Below are positions 5,648 to 14,193 of a stretch of DNA of 64,000 bases, in pieces. How positions within the stretch are numbered: the first letter of the stretch is position 1; every line of letters begins with the position of its first letter. Origin of the DNA: Escherichia phage OES_C-1. The notes beneath the pieces are model-generated. The model did not search any database and was not told the origin of the DNA. It worked only from the letters and a program-made list of their open reading frames with translations. The position numbers and the translations under genes are program-made. The stretch is taken from sequence record PQ553088. One strand, 5' to 3'.

Positions 5648-6450
<803 letters not shown>

Positions 6451-8109: not shown

Positions 8110-8686
8110 ATTCTCTACATTCCTTAACAAATTTTTCTAATAATAAATCGCTTTCAAAATTAGGATTTTCCACGAATTTATCAAAAAGATCATCAACGAT
8201 AGTTAAGATATTCTTTTTACTAAGAATACGCTTATTTTCATATTTTGTTTCAGAGTCAACTATAAGAGTAAAGAAATATTTCTTTCCCTGAAATTTTACC
8301 GTAGTATCAATATAGAACAAATTTGACTTTTGTAAATTACGTTTAAACCATGCGTCACTTAAACTATAAACGCCAAGATAATCATAATCGTCATTTAAAT
8401 AACAAACTGTCCATTCAGGAGAAATGAAATCAGTAAATTCAACATCAAAATCACACGTCAATGAATGAATTGATTCAATACTTTTAATGAGTATTCCAGG
8501 ACGTATTAAAGACTTTTTACCTCTAGAAAATCTTCCGGAAAGGCTTTCATCAGTTTCATATGAAGACCCCCAATAGTAATTACGTCCTTCTGCCATGCGT
8601 TTAAGAGCATTTAGTAATTGGTCTGGAACATCAACCTGTCTTTGGAACTCTTCAAACATTGAATTGAAATCATTTTGCATTCTCAT
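8078..8686 (-). CDS. cassette 1, 202 aa soluble protein, function unknown (C-terminal ...KFVKECREYVKAINVSSK)
   Basis: ATG at 8686; shares the C-terminal FVKECR junction motif with the three downstream cassettes. Confidence 0.6.
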   Translation of the reverse strand: MRMQNDFNSMFEEFQRQVDVPDQLLNALKRMAEGRNYYWGSSYETDESLSGRFSRGKKSLIRPGILIKSIESIHSLTCDFDVEFTDFISPEWTVCYLNDDYDYLGVYSLSDAWFKRNLQKSNLFYIDTTVKFQGKKYFFTLIVDSETKYENKRILSKKNILTIVDDLFDKFVENPNFESDLLLEKFVKECREYVKAINVSSK

Positions 8687-8706
8687 TCCTATTTACTCCA
8701 AGTAAT

Positions 8707-8725
8707 AGGGGCCGAAGCCCCTTAT
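8707..8725 (-). repeat. hairpin aggggccgaagccccttat; exact 19-nt copy also at 50511-50529
   Basis: GGGGC-CGAA-GCCCC stem-loop; identical 19-mer at two distant loci. Confidence 0.6.
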
Positions 8726-8727
8726 CA

Positions 8728-9321
8728 TTATTTCAGAGAATTAATGTATTCCTGAACATCGGCAGAGGTAGTTTCAACCCCAGAAATATTACCGTTAAAG
8801 GTTTCAACTCGAGCAAGGGTATCTTCAATATCAACCTTAGTCAGTGCTGCAATTTCAACTACATCATCAGCAGTACTAATTCCAAGGGCATTTGCTGCAC
8901 GAGTTTCACGGATATATTCCAATTTAACCGCAAGTTCTTGACGAGCATCATCTAACTCAACTACTTTCTTGGCGATTTCAATTCGCATTTCAGCATAACC
9001 GTCAGCCTTAGTAGTCAACTGCTCAGCTGTTCGACGATATAGTAAACCGAGTTTAGCATGCATTGTTACATCTTGGCCTTCGGAAAGAAGTTTACGAATT
9101 TCACGCTCTTTTGATTCGGCCTGTCGATTCTTTTCGATAACAAGTTCACGAATACGTTTTTCTTCATTAATAGATTTAACAGAAGCAGTTTTTAGATCTT
9201 TAATTTTATCAAGTAGTTTTGCTGCTGCAGCAGTATACTGTTCTTCAACAGATAGATTTTTAGCCATAGCAGAACCAAGTTTAGTGCGAATAAACTCAAC
9301 AATTTTCTTCAGTGTGTTCAT
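8728..9321 (-). CDS. coiled-coil protein, function unknown (weak PspA/IM30-like pattern)
   Basis: 197 aa, charged heptad-like sequence; homology not verified. Confidence 0.55.
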
Positions 9322-9422: not shown

Positions 9423-9686
9423 TTATTTCATATTATTGAAATATTCTTCTGCGATTTCGTCGTTATCATGGTAAACTTTAGAAGACAGTTTAACATAACC
9501 TTCTGCTGTGAACATATTAATCACAACTTTTACAGTATACCACTGACCGTCTTCATTACCCATTACTGCGTAAGTTTCAAACATCGGATGATCAGGACCG
9601 ATAACTTTAATATCATTCACTGTACGACCGAAATCTTCTGAAACGCATTTCATAAAGAAGTTGAACAGTTCGCCGTAATTATCCAT
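9423..9686 (-). CDS. hypothetical protein, 87 aa
   Basis: Track start 9806 is TTG; first ATG at 9686 is preceded by GGAGAA. Confidence 0.5.
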   Translation of the reverse strand: MDNYGELFNFFMKCVSEDFGRTVNDIKVIGPDHPMFETYAVMGNEDGQWYTVKVVINMFTAEGYVKLSSKVYHDNDEIAEEYFNNMK

Positions 9687-9724
9687 TTCATTCTCCAAGT
9701 TGTTTTCTGTATCAGTAGTTGATA

Positions 9725-9760
9725 GTTGTATAGTACCATGGAAGAACAGAGATGTAAACA
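9725..9760 (-). promoter_or_regulatory. putative early promoter
   Basis: Minus sense GTTTAC-N18-TACTAT upstream of the 9686 start. Confidence 0.4.
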
Positions 9761-9880
9761 GTTTTGTGAAAAAATTTTTAGGGAATTCTAGGGCAGGGAT
9801 GGGCAATTAAAGGATAGGATAATATATTATAAAGGGTATAAACTAAATGATGCCTAGAGAGGTCCAGAAAGGCCTAGATA

Positions 9881-9907
9881 CCAAAAAGCCCTATCATTTA
9901 GATAGGG
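9881..9907 (-). terminator. rho-independent terminator after the ipIII-like gene
   Basis: Minus sense CCCTATCTAAATGATAGGG followed by CTTTTT. Confidence 0.6.
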
Positions 9908-9915
9908 ATTTAAAA

Positions 9916-10479
9916 TTATTTACCTAGTTTACTTATTATAGCTTCTGCAGCAGCTTTTAGCTTAGATGCAGTGTTAATACGATTTTTAATTTCAGTATAC
10001 GCATCGCCAAGAACATCAAGGCTATCAGAATAAACACTTACACTATTGCGTTCGCTATTTGAAATAGAACCTTTAGTTTTGCGGTCAAAATCGGTGTACA
10101 CGTCTTGAAGATCGCGGGCTGCCTTCTTTGCATCATCCAATGCATCAAGAGCTTTATTCAAAGCATTAACGTATTTTTTAGTGTCGAACATATTCTTAGA
10201 AATTTTAACAGGTGCGCGTTCAGGAGTAGCTAACACAGATTTAGGAACCTGAGCGCCAGATGCCAATTTCTTAGAAATTTTGAAAAATGCTTTATTGAAT
10301 TTATTTTCTTGACTCATTGTAAAAGAACTATTATCGATGTTGTACATTTCAATAGCTTTAGCTTTCCACTTAAGAAAATCGCCGCGGTCTTTTGGGTCCA
10401 ATTGGAAGAATACTTTAGTAAGATCTGCTTCAGATGGTAATTTTGCTGCTTCGGTTAAAAATTCGGCATAGGTTTTCAT
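9916..10479 (-). CDS. internal protein (ipIII-like) with capsid-targeting leader
   Basis: 187 aa starting MKTYAEFLTEAAKL (IP-family leader). Confidence 0.65.
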   Translation of the reverse strand: MKTYAEFLTEAAKLPSEADLTKVFFQLDPKDRGDFLKWKAKAIEMYNIDNSSFTMSQENKFNKAFFKISKKLASGAQVPKSVLATPERAPVKISKNMFDTKKYVNALNKALDALDDAKKAARDLQDVYTDFDRKTKGSISNSERNSVSVYSDSLDVLGDAYTEIKNRINTASKLKAAAEAIISKLGK

Positions 10480-10570
10480 TTAAAATCCTTGAAATAATTT
10501 ATCGGTTGGTTATTAATTATTTATTACTTTGTTACTATCCGTAACAGCGTTATCCGAGTGATTCAAACTA

Positions 10571-10600
10571 AAAAGCCCCAACCTTTCGGTCGGGGCTAAG
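10571..10600 (-). terminator. rho-independent terminator (copy 1 of a 30-nt repeat)
   Basis: Minus sense AGCCCCGACCGAAAGGTTGGGGCT plus TTTTT; exact copy at 11128-11157. Confidence 0.65.
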
Positions 10601-10604
10601 AATG

Positions 10605-11078
10605 TCATTTGATTTGTTTAGCAGACCAAATGCGGTCTTTAATAATTTTTTGGATGTCTTCAACATACTCAAGAGAGTGAACATGTGGATTATCTTTGAA
10701 ACTATAAGCACGGGCTAACTTTTGGCCTTCGGTTTTGATTACTAAAAGCTCTTTAAGGATAGCTTCATATTTAGCGATAATTCCTTTAACGATATTTTTT
10801 TCTTGTGCCGCTTTAGGATCTGCTTTAGGAGCAGGTTTACCCGAAGCCTTTGCAAAAGCAGCGCCAGTAGCAACTAAACTTTTCCAGGCCATACTAACTG
10901 CATTTCCCGTAAATCCTTCCGCTTTCATGTCGCGTGCAAACTGGAATCGCGATTCATCAGAAGCATCTTTATAGGAATATTTACCCGCGGCAATGGCAGC
11001 TTTTGCAACAGCTTGAATTTCGGTGCTAGATGCTTCATTTAACACCGCTTCATTTAAAAATTGAGTATATGATTTCAT
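10605..11078 (-). CDS. internal-protein-family protein with capsid-targeting leader
   Basis: 157 aa from ATG at 11078 (MKSYTQFLNEA...), preceded by AGGAAAT; late promoter TATAAATA just upstream; track N-terminal extension rejected. Confidence 0.6.
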   Translation of the reverse strand: MKSYTQFLNEAVLNEASSTEIQAVAKAAIAAGKYSYKDASDESRFQFARDMKAEGFTGNAVSMAWKSLVATGAAFAKASGKPAPKADPKAAQEKNIVKGIIAKYEAILKELLVIKTEGQKLARAYSFKDNPHVHSLEYVEDIQKIIKDRIWSAKQIK

Positions 11079-11116
11079 CTTATTTCCTGTTTTAATTTGT
11101 AGATTTAATATACTAA

Positions 11117-11124
11117 TATTTATA
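11117..11124 (-). promoter_or_regulatory. late promoter (TATAAATA) for the IP-family gene
   Basis: Plus-strand tatttata about 40 nt upstream of ATG 11078. Confidence 0.5.
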
Positions 11125-11127
11125 CCA

Positions 11128-11157
11128 AAAAGCCCCAACCTTTCGGTCGGGGCTAAG
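11128..11157 (-). terminator. rho-independent terminator (copy 2 of the 30-nt repeat)
   Basis: Identical to 10571-10600. Confidence 0.65.
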
Positions 11158-11465
11158 CCTTGCGGCAACCTTGTCGGGGTTCCACCTGCTAAGGCAAGTG
11201 TTTGTACGAAACGCCGGGATTCGAACCCGGTTATTAAGTAGTTGACGCTACTCAATATTTTTAAAAGGCCATATCTCGACCATATCCGAACGTTCCGTCA
11301 AAAACGCTACTCGGCTTACGGCAAAGATATTTCCTCGAATCGATAATTCGGTGCGCCGTTTCTGCTGTGATGTAAGAGGGCATCAACAAATCATAAAGAT
11401 TTATTAACACGATTCCTTACCCAGGGAACATCAGTCCGACGACTTACCGGTAGCGACCCGGTTTC
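11158..11465 (-). ncRNA. candidate tRNA-like stable RNA(s), possibly equivalent to T4 species 1/2 RNAs (rnaC/rnaD)
   Basis: About 300 nt with no ORF in an otherwise gene-dense region; minus-sense T-arm-like CCGGGTTCGAATCCCGG with flanking CGGAACG/CGTTTCG acceptor-like pairing; ends at a strong terminator. Confidence 0.3.
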
Positions 11466-11816
11466 TTAATATTCTTTTAAAGAATCAATATATTCACGAC
11501 GTTTACGCCATAAATCAATTGCTTCATACGCAGATTCAGCATTTCGAATTGGACGGCATTTATATAAAGACTTATGATTTTGATATTGTGTAGATAACGG
11601 AATTGTATCTAAAAGGTCTTTACGATCAAAATATTCGTAACCATCTAAACCAAATGAACGATTTTTGAGAAATTGCCAATGACCATATTCGTTTTCGACA
11701 TAAACATAATCTGCATGCTGATAAAGCAAATTAATTAAGCGTTCAGAAATAACAGTGTCATTGTGATTAAAATAGAATGTTAAATCATGAACTACTAAAT
11801 AAACATTACCTTTCAT
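11466..11816 (-). CDS. hypothetical protein, 116 aa
   Basis: ATG at 11814-11816, directly downstream of tRNA-Arg. Confidence 0.55.
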   Translation of the reverse strand: MKGNVYLVVHDLTFYFNHNDTVISERLINLLYQHADYVYVENEYGHWQFLKNRSFGLDGYEYFDRKDLLDTIPLSTQYQNHKSLYKCRPIRNAESAYEAIDLWRKRREYIDSLKEY

Positions 11817-11833
11817 ATTTTCCTCACTTAATT

Positions 11834-11909
11834 GGTCGAGGCAGTAGGGATCGAACCTACGACCTAGGACTTAGAAGGTCCTTGCTCTTCCTTCTGAGCT
11901 ATGCCCCGT
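11834..11909 (-). tRNA. tRNA-Arg (anticodon UCU)
   Basis: 76-nt cloverleaf read by hand: acceptor CGGGGCA/TGCCTCG, anticodon loop CTTCTAA, T-arm GTAGG-TTCGATC-CCTAC, encoded CCA. Confidence 0.85.
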
Positions 11910-11911
11910 AA

Positions 11912-12577
11912 TTAAAATTTCATTTTTCGACCTTTAAACCATCCTTCTGGAATTGGGTCAGTTTTCTTAATACGTTTAGAAACTTTTTCATCTAATGAAT
12001 GAATCCACATCATACCAAATTGGGAATTCTTTTCTCCTTTCTGATGATTATTTTTAGCGTGAATTTCTTTCATTTTATTAATAGTTTCAGGAGTATGATG
12101 CTTATTTAAAAATCTGCTATTATTTAAAAATTTTTCCTTGTATTCAGGAGTTGACCACAAACGTTTAAATACATTTGAACCAATTTTACGATATTTTTCT
12201 TGAAGTAAAATATCATTTTCAAAACGTGATTTAAACGATTTAGCTCCTTTTAAACTAGCATCTTTCTTCTGGTTTAGCATCCCAGGAATATTTATATGGT
12301 CCCATCCACCTTCACCACCAAGTTTTAAATTATACACATCTGGTCTATTTAAAAACTCTTCTGTGACAATATTTTTCTCAGCTTCAAGCATAGATTCTTT
12401 ATCATCAAAATACTCTAATATTTCTTTAGAAAAATTTTCTATACCATACTTGTCTTGGGCTCTTTTTAATAATTTACCAGAACCCATATATCCATCATCT
12501 AAATTTTCGGTAGAATGCACACCAATATAAATTTTATTATTAATTTTATTTGTTATTTTATAAAGATAAAAATGCAT
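11912..12577 (-). CDS. segB: GIY-YIG homing endonuclease (SegB-like)
   Basis: 221 aa from ATG at 12577; YLYKITNKINNKIYIGVHST...GYMGSG GIY-YIG motifs; sits inside the tRNA cluster as SegB does in T4; track extension to 12619 would overlap a tRNA. Confidence 0.75.
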   Translation of the reverse strand: MHFYLYKITNKINNKIYIGVHSTENLDDGYMGSGKLLKRAQDKYGIENFSKEILEYFDDKESMLEAEKNIVTEEFLNRPDVYNLKLGGEGGWDHINIPGMLNQKKDASLKGAKSFKSRFENDILLQEKYRKIGSNVFKRLWSTPEYKEKFLNNSRFLNKHHTPETINKMKEIHAKNNHQKGEKNSQFGMMWIHSLDEKVSKRIKKTDPIPEGWFKGRKMKF

Positions 12578-12623
12578 ATCAGTCCCTAATAAAGAACTGA
12601 GCGTCTCACGACGAGTCATAAAT

Positions 12624-12697
<74 letters not shown>

Positions 12698-12703
12698 AAA
12701 TTT

Positions 12704-12789
12704 GGTGCGAGAAGTGGGACTCGAACCCACAAGGAAATCATTCCGCAGCATTTTAAGTGCTGTGCCTTTACCAATTTGACCATTCTCGC
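12704..12789 (-). tRNA. tRNA-Leu (anticodon UAA), class II with long variable arm
   Basis: Acceptor GCGAGAA/TTCTCGC, anticodon loop CTTAAAA, variable arm GGAATGATTTCC, T-arm GTGGG-TTCGAGT-CCCAC, encoded CCA. Confidence 0.85.
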
Positions 12790-12790
12790 G

Positions 12791-12863
12791 CTGGGAATAA
12801 AGGACTCGAACCTTTGCATCCTGGAATCAAAATCCAGTGCCTTACCAACTTGGCTAATTCCCA
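12791..12863 (-). tRNA. tRNA-Gln (anticodon UUG)
   Basis: Acceptor TGGGAAT/ATTCCCA, anticodon loop TTTTGAT, T-arm AAAGG-TTCGAGT-CCTTT; CCA not encoded. Confidence 0.8.
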
Positions 12864-13856: not shown

Positions 13857-13896
13857 GATAGGGTAATAGTATCACTACCCTATCTAAAAGTAAACT
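13857..13896 (-). promoter_or_regulatory. putative early promoter with stem-loop (shares a 19-nt repeat with 14155-14173)
   Basis: Minus sense GTTTAC-N18-TACTAT; palindrome GATAGGGTA...TACCCTATC. Confidence 0.4.
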
Positions 13897-14129
13897 TATT
13901 TTTTACGAAAAATTGATTTATTTTCTGCTGCCCATTTTTCAATAACTGCAGCAGGACCAGTAACAACAATTTTATCACCGTAATCTTCTGCGGCGAGTTG
14001 ACCGAAATTATCTAATGCATCACGAAGAACTCCATGAGGCATTTCACCCATTTTATCTTTCTTGCCAGTGTAAATAAACTCAACTTTTACATCAGCAGTT
14101 TCAGCAATAAATTCTTGGTAAGTTTTCAT
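13896..14129 (-). CDS. ipI: internal protein I-like
   Basis: 77 aa from ATG at 14129 (MKTYQEFIAE..., IP-family leader); flanked on both sides by the repeat gatagggtaatagtatcac. Confidence 0.65.
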   Translation of the reverse strand: MKTYQEFIAETADVKVEFIYTGKKDKMGEMPHGVLRDALDNFGQLAAEDYGDKIVVTGPAAVIEKWAAENKSIFRKK

Positions 14130-14154: not shown

Positions 14155-14193
14155 GATAGGGTAATAGTATCACAACTAAAACCCTATGTAAAC
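14155..14193 (-). promoter_or_regulatory. putative early promoter for the ipI-like gene, containing the 19-nt repeat
   Basis: Minus sense GTTTAC-N18-TACTAT; repeat gatagggtaatagtatcac at 14155-14173. Confidence 0.4.

Follow-up and report, generated by a model that had tools for sequence, protein, structure and literature searches.

Two leader-bearing PHROG 2280 genes and a duplicated terminator at a putative third internal-protein locus of a Tequatrovirus

The internal proteins of T-even phages form a diverse set in which the targeting leader is the only common feature (PMC3012670), and in 2025 T4 Ip1, Ip2 and Ip3 were each reported to inhibit a different GmrSD type IV restriction enzyme (PMC12373910). 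Gene gain and loss in T4-like phages has also been described at promoter-early stem-loops (PeSLs), where a gene that lies between two copies of the element in one phage is matched, in a related phage, by just one copy (RB49/phi1 and PST/T4); such gains and losses were explained by recombination between the copies (PMC2839356, PMC4122927). In T4 itself the internal-protein genes are laid out as denV-ipII-ipIII-e ... ipI-57B, an order that a first-pass annotation of the present DNA had given correctly.

The DNA analysed here is a 64,000-nucleotide stretch (64 kb) of Escherichia phage OES_C-1 (record PQ553088), referred to as the window. Across 9700-11400 its identity is 100% with the Tequatrovirus Escherichia phage OES_C-2 and 99.6% with another Tequatrovirus, Yersinia phage fPS-90, and the window is itself Tequatrovirus. 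The first-pass annotation had placed two genes at 9916-10479 (187 aa, MKTYAEFLTEA...) and 10605-11078 (157 aa, MKSYTQFLNEA...), and both ORFs were recovered there on the minus strand. The features to which we refer are as follows, with a slash at the predicted cleavage site:

5648-5929, minus strand: gene of a 93-aa leader protein in the ipII/ipIII position; Ip5 family (phrog_3499, internal head protein)
9883-9907, minus strand: intrinsic terminator of the 187-aa gene, CCCTATC-TAAAT-GATAGGG followed by a T-run, with the stem at 9889-9907
9916-10479, minus strand: gene of the 187-aa leader protein (PHROG 2280), leader MKTYAEFLTE/A at 10450-10479
10518-10525, minus strand: variant late-promoter motif AATAAATA (7/8), read from the sequence, 38 nt before the 187-aa ATG
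10570-10600, minus strand: distal copy of the 31-nt terminator, predicted to end the 157-aa transcript
10605-11078, minus strand: gene of the 157-aa leader protein (PHROG 2280), leader MKSYTQFLNE/A, with a second L-N-E at residue 15
11117-11124, minus strand: T4 late-promoter motif TATAAATA, exact, with the ATG at 11078 lying 38 nt downstream
11127-11157, minus strand: proximal copy of the 31-nt terminator, which terminates the tRNA/rnaD/rnaC stable-RNA operon
13896-14129, minus strand: gene of a 77-aa leader protein in the ipI position; Ip6, 98.7% to T6 Ip6 (phrog_8111)

The minus-strand gene order starts with denV, the 93-aa leader gene, e, nudE and e.2-e.8, followed by the 187-aa/157-aa genes. 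Beyond these come an rnaC-like RNA, tRNA-Arg, segB, tRNA-Leu and tRNA-Gln, and then the 77-aa leader gene, 57B, 57A and gene 1. We consider it fairly probable that the 187-aa and 157-aa proteins are unrecognised members of the T-even internal-protein class, encoded at a third, cassette-like locus with no counterpart in the classical phages.

As in T4 IPI, IPII and IPIII, each of the two has an N-terminal leader closing in (L/I)-x-E and a late-promoter motif, and a small, basic, Lys-rich mature form is predicted; the genes are likewise non-essential and variable among T-even phages. The predicted mature forms (19.6 kDa, pI 9.5 and 15% Lys for the 187-aa protein; 16.0 kDa, pI 9.5 and 14% Lys for the 157-aa protein) compare with pI 9.6 and 14-16% Lys for mature IPII and IPIII. 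Unlike the three T4 proteins, however, they show no detectable homology beyond the leader and lie at the e.8/rnaC junction, and whereas IPI* has a compact alpha/beta fold, both are predicted to be all-helical (bundle, linker and hairpin).

The 93-aa protein (91% to RB69ORF127c and 48% to Ip5) and the 77-aa protein belong with the named accessory internal proteins. With these accessory proteins (Ip4/IpIV, Ip5/IpV, Ip6/IpVI and Ip7) the 187-aa and 157-aa proteins have in common a class defined by its leader, hyperplastic loci and swapping between phages, but they differ from Ip4-Ip7 in their putative third locus and in being annotated as hypothetical in nearly all records. When compared with Ip4, Ip5, Ip6, Ip7 and the RB69 internal head proteins, neither gave a match at E <= 1e-3, the leader alone being alignable. 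The Ip6 gene of the window is bracketed by a true PeSL-like repeat of early promoter and stem-loop.

The whole 64-kb window was searched in six-frame translation for leaders with the motif MK[STA][YFW]x[EQDK][FYW][ILVMT]x[EST]. It was present in exactly four ORFs (5648-5929, 9916-10479, 10605-11078 and 13896-14129), compared with a mean of 0.005 ORFs over 200 shuffles. This search and the gene order both agree with the earlier claim of four leader-bearing genes in an arrangement other than that of T4. The claim that the two central genes carry a leader of the internal-protein type was also upheld, with an L-x-E cleavage motif closing each leader. Compared with the leader MKTYQEFIAE, MKTYAEFLTE of the 187-aa protein is equal at 7/10 positions and MKSYTQFLNE of the 157-aa protein at 5/10, with conservative changes in addition. 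The predicted motif of the prohead protease (gp21), (L/I)-x-E, falls at residue 10 in both proteins, as L-T-E/A in the 187-aa and L-N-E/A in the 157-aa protein. Further L-x-E sites are found in the latter at residues 15 (L-N-E) and 110, and cleavage in the 157 family after E10 or E15 would give AVLNEASSTEIQAVAK or ASSTEIQAVAK as the predicted mature N-terminus.

In the pathway that we propose, late transcription of the two genes would start at TATAAATA-type promoters, each of which lies 38 nt ahead of the respective ATG. The 157-aa gene had been credited with a late promoter of its own, and a perfect TATAAATA motif indeed stands at 11117-11124, where it directly abuts the T-tail of the upstream terminator copy. 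At the 187-aa gene the exact motif is missing and the best match is 7/8; the ATAAATA core of this variant, AATAAATA, is kept in RB14 and RB69. The 10-residue N-terminal leader would target each protein to the prohead core, and the prohead protease would cut after L-x-E at residue 10. The basic, Lys-rich mature proteins (16 and 19.6 kDa) would remain with the packaged DNA on its way into the cell, where they would most plausibly block a host defence of the nuclease type.

Virion packaging of the 157-type protein is plausible but unproven. In phage fD1 (phiD1), Gp140 (g140, 67942-68415; 157 aa, 17.3 kDa) is 98% identical to the 157-aa protein and was particle-associated by LC-MS/MS in the published virion proteome, for which the public dataset is PXD026812. 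As 113 of the 277 phage gene products (41%) and 672 host proteins were present in the same preparation, this detection is weak evidence. The fPS-90 paper contained no proteomics.

Alternatively, the proteins may be made late and not be stably packaged, either because the leader is a relic of recombination at the 5' end of ip genes or because the products reach the prohead core and are then, like scaffold, degraded and expelled. Purified virions of Klebsiella phage ValerieMcCarty04 point in this direction; canonical internal proteins were abundant there, with 26 peptide matches to an IPII-like and 66 to an IpIV-like protein, while a syntenic and leader-bearing distant relative, VMC04_131 (WKM80661), gave zero peptides. 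The match of WKM80661 to phrog_2280 covers its N-terminal half only (E 1e-10). The extended leader that the 157-aa and 93-aa proteins have in common (42% identity, 31 residues) indicates that leaders get exchanged, and the extra L-x-E sites of the 157-aa protein at residues 15 and 110 also fit a protein that is not packaged. On the other hand, the leader and its L-x-E site are retained in family members with <30% identity elsewhere; that the leader is the best-conserved segment across very divergent members argues for selection on it. The late promoter is conserved across genera. Under the strict threshold for particle association fD1 Gp140 was retained, while its neighbours g138 and g139 (e.8) were not and are absent from the particle-associated list. 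We regard this alternative as unlikely.

Both proteins match phrog_2280 ("unknown function") over their full length, the 187-aa protein through residues 1-181 (E 2e-53) and the 157-aa protein through residues 1-157 (E 2.3e-60). Their identity to each other is only about 25%, and a profile-profile comparison matched the two subfamilies in the linker and the C-terminal half, with a probability of 88.5% (E 2.7e-6). As they fall in a common PHROG and match at the profile level, the two are distant paralogues. The distant members P0010, P0031 and P0032 likewise match phrog_2280. A search of 5.8 billion proteins returned 13 and 11 family clusters, and 16 family representatives were found among 1.84 billion proteins; judged from these sequences, the PHROG 2280 family is seemingly confined to T4-like phages.

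Members of the family begin with a leader that fits the pattern M-x-x-[YF]-x-[EDQS]-F-[LV]-x-E, followed by a small N-terminal helical domain, a Lys/Pro/Ala-rich linker and a C-terminal helical hairpin. The N-terminal helical domain of the 157 branch includes an AWKS motif. The C-terminal hairpin exists in at least two unrelated versions across the family, and the pairing of one N-terminal domain with unrelated C-terminal versions indicates domain shuffling. AlphaFold models repeat the family architecture, with moderate confidence for the 157-aa protein (pLDDT 73.6) and poor confidence for the 187-aa protein (pLDDT 54.5). Foldseek searches of PDB and BFVD matched family members only and were not informative. 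No PDB sequence matched the 187-aa or 157-aa protein, and no significant Pfam or NCBIfam family was found for any of the four leader proteins. With dN/dS of 0.04-0.07, the 187-aa and 157-aa genes are real genes under strong purifying selection.

If packaged, the proteins may still serve a physical role with no host target, such as neutralising the charge of DNA, helping packaging or ejection, or acting as an accessory of the scaffold core. Such a role would suit the basic mature forms (net +7 and +9), the family-wide conservation of the Lys/Pro/Ala-rich linker and a predicted fold in which a generic helical hairpin, but no inhibitor domain, can be recognised; the lysines of T4 internal proteins are also known to touch DNA phosphates (PMC3012670). 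However, T4 Ip2 and Ip3 are equally basic and are specific GmrSD inhibitors (PMC12373910). The genes are, moreover, dispensable and patchy among near-identical phages, and one N-terminal domain is combined with two unrelated C-terminal domains, a patchy and shuffled pattern that suits arms-race cargo better. We find a physical role improbable and prefer to see the proteins as putative injected cargo that would act on the host. The anti-defence role suggested for the 187-aa and 157-aa proteins is pure analogy to T4 Ip1-3; the supplements of Silas 2025 contained no matching sequences.

The heading of the first-pass annotation had described both genes as flanked by an exact 30-nt terminator repeat, and its text only the second gene. 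The repeat is indeed exact, but it is 31 nt long (10570-10600 = 11127-11157), and it brackets only the 157-aa gene, whereas the 187-aa gene ends in a different hairpin. Allowing up to 3 mismatches, no further copy was found elsewhere in the 64-kb window, and none in 100 shuffles. Read along the minus, coding strand, the repeat folds at about -20 to -21.6 kcal/mol into a hairpin in which a GAAA loop closes a G+C-rich stem of 10 bp; U5 follows, and the element is predicted to be a strong intrinsic terminator. Its upstream copy would insulate the late 157-aa gene from the stable-RNA operon, and its downstream copy would stop the 157-aa transcript. The T-tail and stem base of the 187-aa terminator, ATACCAAAAAGCCC, also occur in the tRNA-operon terminator; compared with T4, they make up the insertion's left junction.

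The site of the two genes lies between e.8 and the tRNA/rnaC operon terminator, and its content was compared among related phages. T2, T4, T6 and PST have no gene there and one terminator copy, with 93 nt between conserved anchors; the proximal copy is the sole one in these four phages and in RB14. The 187-aa gene alone is present in RB14 and, as a frameshifted copy, in RB69 (Mosigvirus), where in both cases its own hairpin stands on the e.8 side and a single operon terminator on the rnaC side. The 157-aa gene alone is present in Aplg8, GiZh and G8. In these three the operon terminator is invariant and directly adjoins the late promoter, the distal copy has 1-3 mismatches, and about 36 nt (ATACC...CTAAG) are duplicated. 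Both genes are present in the window and in fPS-90, where they span 1337 nt between the anchors and the two identical terminator copies have a period of 557 nt. OES_C-2 and DalCa are further phages with both genes.

The 557-bp unit at the operon terminator consists of the late promoter, the 157-aa gene and the terminator, while the 187 cassette is bounded by a shorter repeat, AAAAAGCCC. On its left, the distal copy of the window adjoins GATTCAAACT, which is the spacer of RB14 and RB69; on its right it adjoins GAATGTCATTT, with which the 157 cassette ends. As these junctions match the RB14-type and Aplg8-type halves, a crossover inside the terminator is indicated. One unequal crossover within the terminator, between a 187-only phage of the RB14 type and a 157-only phage of the Aplg8 type, would give the two-gene layout, and the duplicated 31-nt terminator would be the footprint of this cassette exchange. 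The e.8/rnaC junction appears, from these comparisons, to be a third internal-protein locus that is filled here and empty in T4, through either insertion here or deletion in T4.

Perhaps the repeat arose in place instead, by tandem duplication of a gene with its terminator, after which the genes diverged while selection or gene conversion preserved the identity of the terminators. Two distant paralogues do lie side by side, and the late-promoter motif stands exactly 38 nt from the ATG at both. Yet the proteins are about 25% identical while the 31-nt copies are identical, and the 187-aa gene ends in another hairpin, separate from the repeat. In the 157-only phages 1-3 nt of the distal copy have changed, so that this copy is not kept invariant. 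Both kinds of single-gene genome exist, and the junctions match the two halves of the layout in the window. We consider an in-place duplication very unlikely and retain the exchange of cassettes between single-gene phages.

Frequencies were counted, approximately, in 50,697 phage records. The 187-aa protein was present in 164 of them and the 157 family in 511, a number that takes in 60-80% identical Mosigvirus variants and N-domain-only matches in Klebsiella phages. About 125 records contain the two-gene junction, and about 276 the 157-only junction. Junction counts were restricted to these two types; those for the RB14 type and the empty site were dropped, as they are inflated by other layouts because the search links fragments separated by as much as 560 nt, and the period of the repeat is 557 nt. 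The repeated terminator is, as far as can be read from these junctions, a recombination footprint common to hundreds of related phages.

In Tequatrovirus, Mosigvirus and Jiaodavirus alike, the family is found at one position, beside the tRNA cluster. Its members in Klebsiella Jiaodavirus are preceded by a hairpin, T5, TATAAATA, about 35 nt and the ATG, the hairpin having another stem sequence and a TTCG loop. Since stem and loop differ while the composite is the same, the combination of terminator and late promoter is conserved in design, not in sequence.

The 157-aa cassette resembles PeSL cassettes in that a non-essential gene lies between two stem-loop copies and relatives have a single copy and no gene. 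It differs from them in its predicted strong intrinsic terminator with a late promoter, whereas in PeSLs a sigma-70-like early promoter overlaps the stem-loop. The terminator/late-promoter repeat would thus work like a PeSL, but it is not one. A bolder and tentative extension, to which we give only a small chance, is that PHROG 2280 comprises a hitherto unrecognised class of injected anti-defence effectors with a conserved N-terminal module and swappable C-terminal hairpins, directed against a defence other than the GmrSD subtypes countered by Ip1-3, and that the terminator/late-promoter composite is a portable recombination site, a late counterpart of the PeSL, which moves cargo between T4-like genera.

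That the two genes are relocated orthologues of T4 IPII and IPIII, as their similar size and charge (19.6 kDa for the mature 187-aa protein and 20.4 kDa for IPIII) and the lack of ipIII at its T4 position in the window phage might suggest, is ruled out for practical purposes, since BLASTP aligns only the first 10-12 residues, that is the leader, with T4 IPI, IPII and IPIII, the PHROGs are different, and phage G8 holds both an IPIII homologue and a 157-family gene. The first-pass annotation had treated such orthology as the outcome that would speak against it; as only the leader aligns, that was not what we found. An anticorrelation of IPIII with the 187/157 genes was rejected as well, because G8 carries both.

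Among hundreds of sampled entries all but two were annotated as hypothetical, the exceptions being a UniRef entry for a Klebsiella-phage homologue ('Internal head protein') and a spurious JGI name. In the Aplg8 record the 157-type gene was left unannotated. A literature search on the locus tags found no paper, and internal proteins are not discussed in two reviews of T4-like genomes. The family was never studied and is still hypothetical probably because it is missing from T2, T4 and T6, and yet it is carried by several hundred sequenced therapeutic or environmental Tequatrovirus isolates.

As all three T4 internal proteins are specific inhibitors, each of another type IV restriction enzyme, each uncharacterised leader protein of T4-like phages is a candidate anti-defence specificity. 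The e.8/rnaC junction, as a putative third internal-protein locus, offers a simple rule for finding more cargo genes, and phages with 0, 1 and 2 genes at this site provide natural, isogenic-like contrasts for host-range tests. The 187-aa and 157-aa genes would thus be a defined and widespread candidate pair for anti-defence screening, and their locus a clear example of terminator-mediated cassette exchange.

The protein of 157 aa (gene at 10605-11078, minus strand) and the Ip5-family protein of 93 aa (gene at 5648-5929, minus strand), which are elsewhere unrelated, were found to have in common an extended form of the N-terminal capsid-targeting leader, ...FLxE-x-[VI]-LNEA, encoded by the following segments:

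11034-11078, minus strand, first 15 codons of the 157-aa gene
5885-5929, minus strand, first 15 codons of the 93-aa gene

The two proteins align along 31 residues at 42% identity (E 7e-6), and each has another L-N-E site, at residue 15. This suggests either leader exchange between ip genes or a two-step processing.

Late-promoter motifs (10518-10525 and 11117-11124) were identified for the 187-aa and 157-aa genes, each exactly 38 nt 5′ of its own start codon; despite this equal spacing, the 5′ untranslated sequences behind them are unrelated. The 157-aa gene lacks annotation in the Aplg8 record (8499-8972 of that locus), and RB69ORF148c and ORF149c are the two parts of a single 187-like gene that a frameshift interrupts in the RB69 record (9429-9991 of that locus).

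Around the Ip6 gene (13896-14129, minus strand, 77 aa), we identified:

13857-13875 and 14155-14173, minus strand, 19-nt exact direct repeat GTGATACTATTACCCTATC flanking the gene on both sides
13857-13884, minus strand, stem-loop beside the gene

None of 100 shuffles contained the repeat, which constitutes the -10 box of an early-type T4 promoter (GTTTAC...GATACT). Because this box overlaps the stem-loop, the repeat is an element like PeSL, the promoter-early stem-loop cassette element of T4-type phages.

Only three tRNA genes (Arg, Leu and Gln) are present at 11833-12863, compared to eight in T4; the window lacks the Ile/Thr/Ser/Pro/Gly tRNA block beside segB (11912-12619), a homing endonuclease gene. 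Next to them lies:

11466-11816, minus strand, 116-aa ORF between the rnaC-like RNA and tRNA-Arg

In T4 this place is occupied by rnaD; RB69 (ORF150c), G8 and T2 have similar-sized genes there.

One further leader-bearing protein was identified in Klebsiella phage ValerieMcCarty04:

15897-16280 of the ValerieMcCarty04 locus, WKM80674, adjoining 57B, phrog_21099

WKM80674, with its canonical leader (MKSYQEFLMETE...), also had no credible peptide in the published ValerieMcCarty04 virion mass spectrometry. The presence of a leader is no guarantee of detectable packaging.
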